Shown in pieces: positions 2,250-33,395 of a stretch of DNA of 64,000 nt (its first letter is position 1; each line of letters begins with the position of its first letter). Origin of the DNA: Bacillota bacterium (GTDB lineage: Bacteria; Bacillota; Bacilli; Paenibacillales; Paenibacillaceae); the NCBI GenBank assembly GCA_051750645.1, contig JBNJJW010000023.1:7921-71920 (forward strand), written 5' to 3'. The position numbers and the translations under genes were made by a program. The notes under the pieces were generated by a model. That model was not told the DNA's origin. It worked only from the letters and a program-made list of their open reading frames with translations, and ran no database searches.

Positions 2250-2264
2250 TATCGCCTCGCAGCT

Positions 2265-2560
2265 CGCCATTTCACCTTTAGGGTTTATAGGTCTGCTGGT
2301 TACGAAAAAAAACTTCGTGCGGGGGAGGGTCTCCCTAGTTCCAGACACAACTGTCTCTGCATGCCGTTCCCTATACACCGGAGGATTCTTCCGCGCTGCG
2401 GTTCCAAGTTCTTCGCGCGTTCCATGGCCTTCGCCGGGGCAGACGGGGCTCGGCTTCCTCTTGTCCCTTTCGGGTTTAGTTTCACGATGCGGTAGGATTC
2501 ATTTTCATTACGGCCTGCAGATTTGCTTCATCGCACAAGGTGCGACTTTTCACAGGGCTG
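2265..2560 (-). mobile_element. Group II intron RNA remnant (internal domain I to domain II/III), no ORF
   Basis: Homologous to 33025-33240 (shared AGCCCTGTGAAAAGTCG, GAATCCTACCGCATCGTGAAA, GCCGAGCC...GGCGAAG.CCATGGAAC); contains GGAACTAGGGAGACCC, typical of the domain I/II junction. Confidence 0.7.
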
Positions 2561-31452: not shown

Positions 31453-31468
31453 ATGTGTACGTACAACT
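31453..31468. promoter_or_regulatory. AraR operator (autoregulation)
   Basis: TGTACGTACA core at 31456-31465. Confidence 0.85.
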
Positions 31469-31499
31469 TTTTCGAACAACGATGAAAGAAGTGGATTGC

Positions 31500-32591
31500 A
31501 TGAAGCCAAAGTACCAGCTCATTATTGAAGATATCAAAAGTTATATCCTCTCTGGAACGTACAAAGCAGGCGAGAAAATCCCTTCGGAGCACGTTTTGGA
31601 GGAAAGCTACAACGTTAGCCGGCAGACGGTTCGAAAGGCCATTCTAGAGTTATCGAACGAGGGGTTCCTGCGAAGCGAGCGGGGATCCGGTACATACGTC
31701 AGCAACCAATATCGGTCCAGAACAGGTGCAAAAACCATGAATAAAACGATCGGCGTCATCACGACCTATATATCGGATTACATCTTCCCCTCCATTATCC
31801 GCGGCATTGAAAGCCGGCTAAATGAAGATAACTATTCATTGCTGCTAGCCAGTACAAATAATGATATCTCCCAGGAAAAAAAGGCGTTGGAAATGATGCT
31901 ATCCTACGGCGTGGATGGACTGATTGTAGAACCTACCAGAAGCAGTGTATACAACCCCAATATCGCTTACTACCTGTCTTTTAAGGAGCAGGAGGTTCCG
32001 TTCGCGATGATCAATGCCTATTATGAAGAGTTGGAAGTTCCTTTCTTCTGTCTGGATGACGTGCAGTCCAGCTATCTCGCAACCCGGGAGCTGATTACCA
32101 AAGGACATACCCAGATCGGCATCATCGCGAAAATGGATGATTTGCAAGGGAAGTATAGAATGAAGGGATTTATCAAGGCCCTTGGGGAAGCCAAATTACG
32201 GTTCCAGCAAGAGCATGTGCTTTCTTTCGATACATCGGCAAAGTCGGACCTGTCCGCTAACTTGGAAGTGTATCTGAACGACAATCGGGATGAATTGACT
32301 GCGCTTGTGTGTTACAACGACGAGGTAGGCTTGGAAGTCGTACATGTCTGCAGAAAACTGGGAATTTCCATTCCGGACGAGCTATCCATCATTGGCCAGG
32401 ACAATTCATATATCGCCAAAAACGCGAATATCAAACTAACGACGCTGACGCACCCCCAAGAACAAATGGGACGCGACGCAGCTGACTGGGTCATTAAGAA
32501 TTTACAAGGCAAAAAAGACTTGCCCACCAAAACCTACTACCAGCCCGTATTAATTGAGGGCGAAACAGTAAAAGCGATCGAAGTGGAATAG
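31500..32591 (+). CDS. araR: Arabinose repressor (GntR HTH + LacI-type sensor)
   Basis: MKPKYQ...VSRQTVRKA...GSGTYV; ISDYIFPSII; divergent from araBDA. Confidence 0.95.
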   Translation: MKPKYQLIIEDIKSYILSGTYKAGEKIPSEHVLEESYNVSRQTVRKAILELSNEGFLRSERGSGTYVSNQYRSRTGAKTMNKTIGVITTYISDYIFPSIIRGIESRLNEDNYSLLLASTNNDISQEKKALEMMLSYGVDGLIVEPTRSSVYNPNIAYYLSFKEQEVPFAMINAYYEELEVPFFCLDDVQSSYLATRELITKGHTQIGIIAKMDDLQGKYRMKGFIKALGEAKLRFQQEHVLSFDTSAKSDLSANLEVYLNDNRDELTALVCYNDEVGLEVVHVCRKLGISIPDELSIIGQDNSYIAKNANIKLTTLTHPQEQMGRDAADWVIKNLQGKKDLPTKTYYQPVLIEGETVKAIEVE

Positions 32592-32620: not shown

Positions 32621-33000
32621 TCAATACGGCAACTGAATAATAAACCGGGTTCCCTGATTAAGATTACTTTCAACTTCAATTGTGCCCTGGTGAGAGAGGA
32701 CATATTGTTTGGCAATCGCAAGACCTAATCCTGTCCCGCCGCTATCTCTTGTGCGTGCTTCGTCGATTGTTCTCATTCAGAATTCGAAAGGATATGATTC
32801 CTTGACTATTTGAATACTTGATTGCATTCGTAAGCAAAATAATAAGAACCTGTTTGATTCGATTAGCATCTACGCATAATGTGGTTTGTTGAGTAAGAAC
32901 CTCCAATTGAATCGAAATATCCTTTTCTTCGGCGAGGGGCTCGATGGCTAAGCGGAGCTGATAAGCTCGATCTGCAATGTCAGCAGCCGCTTTATTTAAT
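32621..33000 (-). pseudogene. Sensor histidine kinase C-terminal (HATPase) remnant
   Basis: IEPLAEEKDI...NRIKQVLIILLTNAIKYS and, in another frame, DEARTRDSGGTGLGLAIAKQYV...GTRFIIQLPY-stop. Confidence 0.8.
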
Positions 33001-33024
33001 CTTAGTTTTCCCGCTTCTGCTATA

Positions 33025-33348
33025 GACAAGGTTCCTCTACATGCCGATCCCTTTACACCTGAGGGTTCTTCTGCGCTGCACTCCAAGATCTTCGCTCGTT
33101 CCATGGTCTTCGCCGGGGCAGTCGTGGCTCGGCTCCCTCTTATCCCCTTCGGGTTCACTTTCACGATGCGGTAGGATTCATTTTCATTTACGGCTTGCAG
33201 ATTTGCTTCACCGCGCAGAGCGCGACTTTTCACAGGGCTTCAACCGCCGGATTTCGCCGACGTCTGCCTGCTAGCTACGGGGCGGCTTGGTCCCTAACCC
33301 GACTGAACTTGCATCAGTAAGTTGTGCCTAGCTTGGCTAGGCGCGCAC
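33025..33348 (-). mobile_element. Group II intron 5' portion (domain I), truncated
   Basis: Begins GTGCG at 33348 on the minus strand; homologous to 2265-2560; candidate EBS1 loop GCC-ACGACUGCCCC-GGC. Confidence 0.78.
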
Positions 33349-33395
33349 TGCCCGTTAGCGGGGAAAAGGCAGCCGATGATATTGGCTGCCTCTTG
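33349..33395. repeat. Half of a paired-site element interrupted by the intron
   Basis: TGCCCGTTAGCGGGGAAAAGGCAGCCG..GGCTGCC matches 10043 and 60943; the CTATCC part is replaced by intron sequence. Confidence 0.8.

Follow-up and report, generated by a model that had tools for sequence, protein, structure and literature searches.

Group II introns of the IIC-attC type reportedly lie antisense to the cassettes of integrons. RmInt1, an endonuclease-less class D intron, homes into ISRm2011-2 of Sinorhizobium meliloti, where the target is a transposase gene and is recognized through EBS1 and EBS2. The textbook 5′ end of a group II intron is GUGYG, in which the U at position 2 is near-universal. The IIC-attC introns, exemplified by S.ma.I2 from Serratia marcescens, insert into the attC recombination sites of integron cassettes (Zimmerly and Semper 2015, PMC4424553), and class C (IIC) introns such as B.h.I1, O.i.I1, and GsI-IIC insert after intrinsic terminators (Toor 2006, PMC1702495; Waldern 2020, PMC7306698). 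The hallmarks of class C are an IBS1-EBS1 pairing of 3 to 4 bp and a domain V that carries CGC instead of AGC (Toor 2006, PMC1702495). Some types of intron-encoded protein (IEP) that are close to class C but outside it and lack an endonuclease (g6, U1, and U2) likewise occur, in many cases, directly downstream of terminators (Miura et al. 2022, PMC8919778). Here, we analyzed a truncated group II intron in a 64-kb stretch of Paenibacillaceae DNA (the window). Comparisons with its relatives indicate that its lineage was very probably retargeted from ordinary terminators to one fixed position of a short repeat, the box.

The box and the interrupted copy in the window

The box, which comes after the terminators of cassette-like genes, is a 26-bp palindrome whose core, GGGCAG, is flanked on either side by a 10-bp arm, and this genome holds more than 100 copies of it. 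Alignment of 105 genomic copies gave the consensus TTnnnCTAAC / GGG(T/C)A(C/G) / GATAGnnnAA, with the arms inverted; the core reads GGGTAC ahead of the hairpin and GGGCAG behind it. The sequence TAACGGGCA occurs 163 times genome-wide, with ~100 of the occurrences within the same hairpin/box context. Boxes form same-orientation runs, 0.6 to 5 kb apart, on many small contigs. Within the 64 kb, we found three exact copies of the 12-mer CGCTAACGGGCA and one with a single mismatch (by chance, a 12-mer would occur ~0.008 times over both strands); a shuffle control for the 12-mer, which covers only matches with at most 2 mismatches, was not significant on its own. The intact copies in the window, CGCTAACGGGCAGGATAAC (10043), CGATAACGGGCAGGATAAC (38750), and CGCTAACGGGCAGATAG (60944), continue with GGATAAC or GATAG. 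No description of the box family was found in the searchable literature.

We regard the box as a putative recombination site because it has palindromic arms and because a small Xer-like recombinase gene is present in an array contig. Its layout, with a conserved core and inverted 10-bp arms instead of the R″/L″/L′/R′ arrangement of attC, appears to be that of Xer/dif-type tyrosine-recombinase sites. The gene lies inside a box run (G000:C57:4590-5444, minus strand) and encodes a 280-aa Xer-like tyrosine recombinase with a Phage_integrase domain and an N-terminal SAM-like domain; this protein is the candidate recombinase of the box system. A truncated paralogue of it is located near another box (G000:C33:47333-48061, plus strand).

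The window contains an interrupted box on the minus strand. A terminator hairpin belonging to the upstream unit (33368..33390) reads GGCAGCC (33390-33384), aatatcatc, GGCTGCC (33374-33368) and is followed by TTTTCC(C). After TTTTCC come CCGCTAACGGGCAGT and then GCGCGCCTAGCCAAGCTAGGCAC, the 12-mer occupying 33360-33349 and GTGCG following it at 33348-33344. The left part of the junction box (33347..33363) consists of the 10-bp left arm CCCCGCTAAC (33363-33354), the 6-bp core GGGCAG (33353-33348), and T33347, which is the first base of the right arm. The insertion point is one base 3′ of the box core; a wild-type box with this point marked reads …CTAACGGGCAGT|TTAGTTGAG. With a custom stem finder, the hairpin of this copy has a stem score of 28, and the 3′ end of its stem lies 21 nt before the insertion point. 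All the letters singled out by the original prediction (hairpin, 12-mer, GTGCG, stem-loop, and intact copies) are present in the DNA where it had placed them.

The intron itself is a 312-nt 5′ remnant of domain I (33035..33346, minus strand), which begins at nucleotide 1 (GCGCG) and breaks off near nucleotide 312; of domains II to VI and the reverse-transcriptase (RT) gene, nothing is left. At 33183-33320 (minus strand), the Rfam covariance model RF02003 (group-II-D1D4-4) scores 72 bits (E value = 8.5e-14; gathering score, 49); this is the sole Rfam match within the 64 kb and independently agrees with the earlier call of a group II intron. The remnant is 95 to 97% identical to full-length or longer copies over query positions 1 to 318, and the similarity ends at 33035. 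Unrelated sequence follows the stump and then the broken C-terminal fragment of a histidine kinase (32621..32990, minus strand), which has a frameshift and no N terminus. Read-through translation of this fragment matches Pfam HATPase_c (55 bits, E value = 1.2e-14); the domain is visible only when two frames are read through, and the uninterrupted open reading frame (ORF) at 32742-33233 had no Pfam match. The kinase fragment fused to the stump marks a deletion or rearrangement scar, and the window copy is a dead, inert remnant. After insertion, a rearrangement would have removed everything beyond nucleotide 312 and joined the stump to the kinase fragment. The rest of the right arm was lost along with the 3′ part of the intron, and the split box would no longer be able to form a complete site. 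We infer that, in general, a box split by an intron is no longer a substrate for its recombinase. Beside the remnant, a 378-aa ORF (31455-32591, plus strand) encodes an ordinary sugar regulator, in which a GntR-type helix-turn-helix is fused to a LacI-like periplasmic-binding domain.

A second remnant, from a sister intron, lies elsewhere in the window (2258..2559, minus strand), flanked by copies of the GTTCTTGTCC repeat. Its 5′ end is missing; what is left covers intron positions ~110 to 413 and is 87 to 91% identical to the window type. Its EBS1, TCTGCC, would pair with GGCAGA, fitting the common box variant GGGCAGA. Full-length copies of this UCUGCC sister variant were not found in 401 genomes of the family.

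Intron boundaries and target pairing

The loop that would read the target lies in the hairpin GCC ACG-ACTGCC-CC GGC (33112..33128, minus strand), whose letters read GCC-ACGACTGCCCC-GGC from 33128 to 33112. Across 74 independent insertions, exon positions −1 to −6 paired with six bases of this loop in 82 to 95%, with all pair types represented. Paired cells amounted to 88%, versus 60% in shuffles, and the EBS1-IBS1 covariation score was 0.797, versus 0.244 in shuffles and 0.09 to 0.23 when the register was slid by 1 to 3 nt. The stem closing the loop was 99% paired, with compensatory changes. Because this 6-bp pairing holds over the 74 insertions, we place the start of the intron at GCGCG; its true 5′ end is, on this comparison, G33346, 2 nt downstream of GTGCG. 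In the window copy, EBS1 is ACUGCC (33122-33117) and IBS1 GGCAGU (GGCAGT, 33352-33347), which comprises part of the box core and one base of the right arm, with a seventh pair possible between G33353 and C33116.

The original prediction had instead taken the canonical GTGCG at 33348 as the start, with a UGCCC loop pairing with the last exon bases, GGGCA. Such a start has the textbook GUGYG end and the complementarity of GGGCA and UGCCC in its favor, but we consider it extremely improbable, given that homologs begin with GCGYGCC directly after unrelated exon bases and that sliding the pairing register by 1 to 3 nt lowers the paired cells from 88% to 30 to 50%. At one relative (L090), the exon GTCCGT stands opposite a loop with EBS1 ACGGAC, and therefore GT pairs as exon there too. 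Moreover, a box made by joining GGGCA to TTAACGC would lack 2 nt relative to the family register, GGGCA-GNN-TAAC, which only an exon ending in GGGCAGT preserves. The loop named in the original prediction was therefore the right one in the wrong register, ACUGCC(C) with (G)GGCAGU rather than UGCCC with GGGCA, and its boundary was 2 nt too far upstream, the exon ending in …GGGCAGT. Among the 74 copies, 71 begin with GCGYG; the other 3 have the canonical GUGCG without any shift of register (window 33345, column 12 of alignment A1).

At the other end, the EBS3 column forms Watson-Crick pairs with the first base of the 3′ exon in 92% of the 60 full-length introns compared, and each of the four bases occurs in it. 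In the box lineage, EBS3 is an A opposite a T. The window copy has this A at 33053 (GGTGTA-A-AGGG, minus strand), for which the T starting the 3′ exon in all full-length copies of the lineage is the expected partner. Full-length copies end …CUCUAC|TTAG/TTAA/TTGG, in longer form …CTTTACTCTAC. Their 3′ exons read TTAACGC, TTAGTTCC, TTGGAGCC, TTAGTTGAG, and TTAGCTTAG, and the introns are followed by TTAACGCAAC, TTAGTTCCAATATGTGG, TTGGAGCC, TTAGTTGAGC, or TTAGCTTAG. The flanks expected for full-length homologs by the original prediction, …AACGGGCA|GGATAG, were not found; the flanks read …ACGGGCAGT|TTAG/TTAA/TTGG.

We infer the splice junctions of the family from DNA comparisons. At that level, introns of the GCGCG clade finish with …CUAC and those of the clade of the C16 type described below with …CUAG, and the ends depart by one base each from the 5′ GUGYG and 3′ AY termini. 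A literature search on GCGUG 5′ ends and on C at intron position 2 returned nothing relevant.

Two further pairing elements were considered and rejected. A putative EBS2, GUUAG in the loop GGGUUAGGGACC, would face CUAAC of the box in the window copy only, and relatives read GUAG or GUAA there. A small in-box hairpin, CCCG-CUAA-CGGG, was not conserved at other target sites.

The box lineage and its terminator-seeking relatives

We then compared the insertion sites of the closest relatives. Thirteen independent insertions in two genera, at least 93% identical in domain I and each with a different upstream hairpin, were recovered from genomes G000, G028, G035 (4 copies), G041, G069, G162 (3 copies), G222, and G243. 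All 13 sit at the same box nucleotide, with the junction …A(A/C)(G/T)GGCAGT|GCGCGCC (in longer form, …A(A/C)(G/T)GGCAGT|GCGCGCCTAGC); at most 2 to 9 candidates were scored per genome in this search, and copies outside boxes could have escaped it. Only five of these insertions have both flanks. When the two flanks of a full-length relative were joined, a complete box in the family register was restored, and those of L141 gave CTCAACTAAC-GGGCAG-TTTAGTTGAG, a near-perfect box. At least 6 of the 13 copies are truncated or internally deleted. In G000, the genome of the window, ~22 boxes read GGGCAGT, with T as the next base in about ten, and intact introns of the box lineage were not found in that genome. 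A search of the plasmid collection returned only 50-nt domain V matches, in Leptospira.

The identity, or near identity, of …ACGGGCAGT in 13 of 13 copies could also be read as a 5′ extension of the mobile element itself rather than as its target. We give this reading hardly any credence: the sequence lies behind diverse box left arms (CGCTAAC, AAGCTAAC, GAACTAAAG, CAACTAAC, and GAAGTAAC), and its 7 nt pair with EBS1 as exons do. Furthermore, the right arm of the box follows the intron, and removing the intron therefore leaves an uninterrupted box.

The lineage is specialized on the box, because all of its close relatives in other genomes occupy the same box position. In the RT tree, the box lineage forms one clade (support 100/100) on a long stem and arises from within a set of relatives whose targets are ordinary terminators or other palindromes; it is thereby shown, as far as the tree reaches, to descend from terminator-seeking relatives. 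The specialization on this repeat family, which had been predicted from the window alone, is borne out by the shared insertion nucleotide and by the RT clade.

Besides the two remnants in the window, the same genome holds a full-length 1,921-nt intron of a different subfamily (C16 type; G000:C16:9454-11374, minus strand, locus L168) with an apparently intact 430-aa RT/maturase. Its EBS1, CUUCAA, stands opposite the exon UUGAAG; 13 nt past a terminator stem, this intron interrupts the left arm of a box, splitting CATTGAAG|TAACGGGCAG 9 to 10 nt upstream of the position used by the window copy. Its RT has 397 relatives in species genomes, of which the best 80 are 77 to 88% identical and belong to Paenibacillus, Cohnella, and neighboring genera. 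Introns of this type have constant ends (GCGTGCC…CTCTAG) and mutually unrelated flanks, and each lies a few bases past a rho-independent terminator, 11 to 15 nt from the stem (median 13, n = 49).

These insertions raise the question of whether generic terminator targeting, with the hairpin alone setting the landing place and the box hit by accident, would account for the box lineage as well. That account draws on the ~49 wider-family insertions that lie 11 to 15 nt after unrelated terminators and on four copies (the C16 copy, L046, L082, and L083) that land in boxes, or in the TAACGGGCA repeat, merely because the box follows a terminator. It appears improbable for the box lineage, however, whose 13 copies share one box nucleotide at a variable 18 to 25 nt from the hairpin, two sites having no convincing hairpin; whose EBS1 is complementary to the conserved box core; and whose RTs form one clade. 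The distances were obtained with a GC-anchored stem finder, which replaced the raw RNAfold distance as too noisy (A-U pairs lengthened the stems). We therefore retain a lineage retargeted to the box, in which the hairpin may still play a residual role, since the box is always near a terminator. More distant full-length homologs (≤81% identity) sit after unrelated terminators, and the specialization is therefore confined to one sublineage; the original prediction that full-length homologs would share the target holds for the 13 close copies and fails for these.

An A-rich tract of the intron offers a possible way of recognizing terminators. This single-stranded tract (window ~33168-33176, minus strand; GTGAAAGTG, and GTCAAAAAG in generic relatives) lies ~40 nt upstream of the EBS1 hairpin, and its A5 run GUCAAAAAG faces the terminator U-tract. 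In 4 to 5 lineages with other targets (L095, L121, L124, and L126), the tract has changed to complement the new 5′ exon; in others nothing comparable was seen, and the controls were weak. Among 17 variant loci, support for the pairing came from only these 4 to 5, and no EBS2 pairing with the box was detectable for the box lineage in the same 17-locus test. The A-rich tract may be EBS2, an element that class C introns lack.

Several individual loci add to this picture. At L106 (G035:C51:29300-31855), one box holds a 150-nt intron stump, and a second box 80 nt on is occupied by a copy that is partly duplicated internally (positions 1-368, 233-1906, and 1674-1950), a layout that suggests recombination between intron copies within the array. 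Other sublineages occur in other special places (L108, G028:C38; L146 and L144, G205 and G345; L122, G229:C135): a terminator-hairpin loop located between two boxes, a long palindrome, again in its loop (GTAAGCGTCAAATAGCCCCCA|...TGGGGGCTATTTGACGCTTAC), and a site 13 nt downstream of the box core (ACGGGCAGTTTAATGTAACA|). Finally, L027, L038, L054, and L039, from records of Halalkalibacter oceani, Paenibacillus ihumii, and P. residui, do not differ in their intron RT or their 5′ flank, with the 3′ flank also common to some, which points to either very recent transfer of a larger segment or assembly contamination.

Intron class, mechanism, and comparison with described introns

The lineage is one of mobile, ORF-containing group II introns, as seen from its conserved domain V and RT/maturase ORF. 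The full-length relative L101, 95% identical and 1,948 nt long from the corrected 5′ end, has domain I (RF02003), domain V (AAGCCGUAUGCGGGAAAACUGCACGUACGGUU), a domain VI whose bulged A lies 7 nt before the 3′ end, and a 459-aa RT/maturase ORF (TIGR04416, 426 bits). The IEPs of 430 and 459 aa lack an endonuclease domain or HNH region. Their closest solved RTs are IIC RTs (7uim, 212 bits; 6ar1, 206 bits; versus 169 for LtrA and 154 for TeI4h), which are very distant from them and on long branches in the tree. The RT phylogeny proposed in the original prediction thus resolved the box lineage as a clade and, as to class, placed it nearest to IIC RTs at a long distance.

The ribozyme appears not to be a canonical IIC ribozyme, judging by its AGC triad, its 6-bp EBS1, and its RF02003 match. 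Domain V reads AAGCCGUAUG…, with AGC, not CGC. The EBS1-IBS1 pairing is 6 bp long across the family, reaching 7 bp in the window copy, versus the 3 to 4 bp of IIC introns. The best member of the Rfam clan is RF02003 (D1D4-4; 72 bits for the window copy and 99 bits) rather than RF02001, and the Oceanobacillus iheyensis structure 4FAW is assigned to group-II-D1D4-3, in line with the earlier remark that this RNA does not resemble the O. iheyensis IIC fold. Insertion after terminators, a further IIC trait, is found in the wider family, and the box lineage departs from it.

Taken together with the target, these features suggest the following course of insertion. The intron RNA would read the box through its 6-nt EBS1 loop, ACUGCC, pairing with GGCAGU, and the single EBS3 base A would pair with the next T, giving insertion between …GGGCAGT and TTAG…. 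By the DNA comparisons, the intron starts with GCGCG, C replacing the usual U at position 2, and ends with CUCUAC, and the protein it encodes is an RT/maturase without an endonuclease domain. The excised RNA probably enters single-stranded DNA at replication forks by reverse splicing, with a nascent strand priming its copying, as in other endonuclease-less introns (Zimmerly and Semper 2015, PMC4424553). The transiently single-stranded sites postulated in the original prediction are not needed, as endonuclease-less introns use replication-fork single strands anywhere.

The comparative data support the predicted parallel with attC-targeting introns. Like the IIC-attC introns, the box lineage is an endonuclease-less sublineage of a terminator-seeking group that has specialized on, and splits, a cassette junction site. 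The site differs, however, being a sequence-conserved, 26-bp palindromic, Xer/dif-like site in Bacillota, whereas attC is structure-conserved; recognition would proceed through a 6- to 7-bp pairing of EBS1 with the core, whereas attC is recognized by a bulged stem-loop plus 3 to 4 bp; and the box intron is co-oriented with the upstream terminator and has a ribozyme that is not canonical IIC. The box intron is thus, by these traits, an analogue of the IIC-attC introns and not a member of them. With class C introns in general, the wider family (C16 type and GCGCG type) has in common its position 11 to 15 nt after terminator stems, the lack of an endonuclease domain, and IIC RTs as the nearest solved RTs; unlike them, it has a 6-bp EBS1-IBS1 pairing, a domain V with AGC, RF02003 as best model, and a GCGYG 5′ end. 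Compared by description, the post-terminator behavior of the wider family also resembles that of g6, U1, and U2; the supplement of Miura et al. 2022 (PMC8919778), which gives IEP types by accession, contains none of the loci named here. Finally, like RmInt1, the box lineage lacks an endonuclease, homes into a repeated element by way of EBS/IBS pairing, and is thereby sustained by the copy number of its target; it differs from RmInt1 in its short, non-coding target and in that no EBS2 pairing is detectable.

We also considered a broader scenario, in which box introns are entangled with an undescribed Gram-positive cassette system and stem from a non-IIC parent family that finds terminators partly by an EBS2-like tract. 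We hold this to be speculative and rather unlikely as a whole. If true, introns lodged between the core and the right arm would lock cassettes in position, and recombination between intron copies or reverse splicing into transcripts could move half-boxes and terminators beside new genes. Such a role was once proposed for IIC-attC introns in the making of integron cassettes. Pairing of the A-tract with the U-tract would, in the same case, be a second, mechanistically distinct route of terminator targeting.

The intron and its relatives provide exceptions to textbook features of group II introns, with C at intron position 2 and terminator targeting without the hallmarks of a IIC ribozyme. Their natural EBS1 variants, ACUGCC and UCUGCC, matched to the core variants GGCAGU and GGCAGA, are a ready experimental system. 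Group II introns would have specialized at least twice on cassette junctions, on attC in integrons and on an Xer-like box in Paenibacillaceae, with different ribozyme types and different recognition logic. For the Paenibacillaceae themselves, the existence of a dedicated homing intron argues that the boxes are numerous, are conserved in more than one genus, and persist for long enough to support a parasite of their own.
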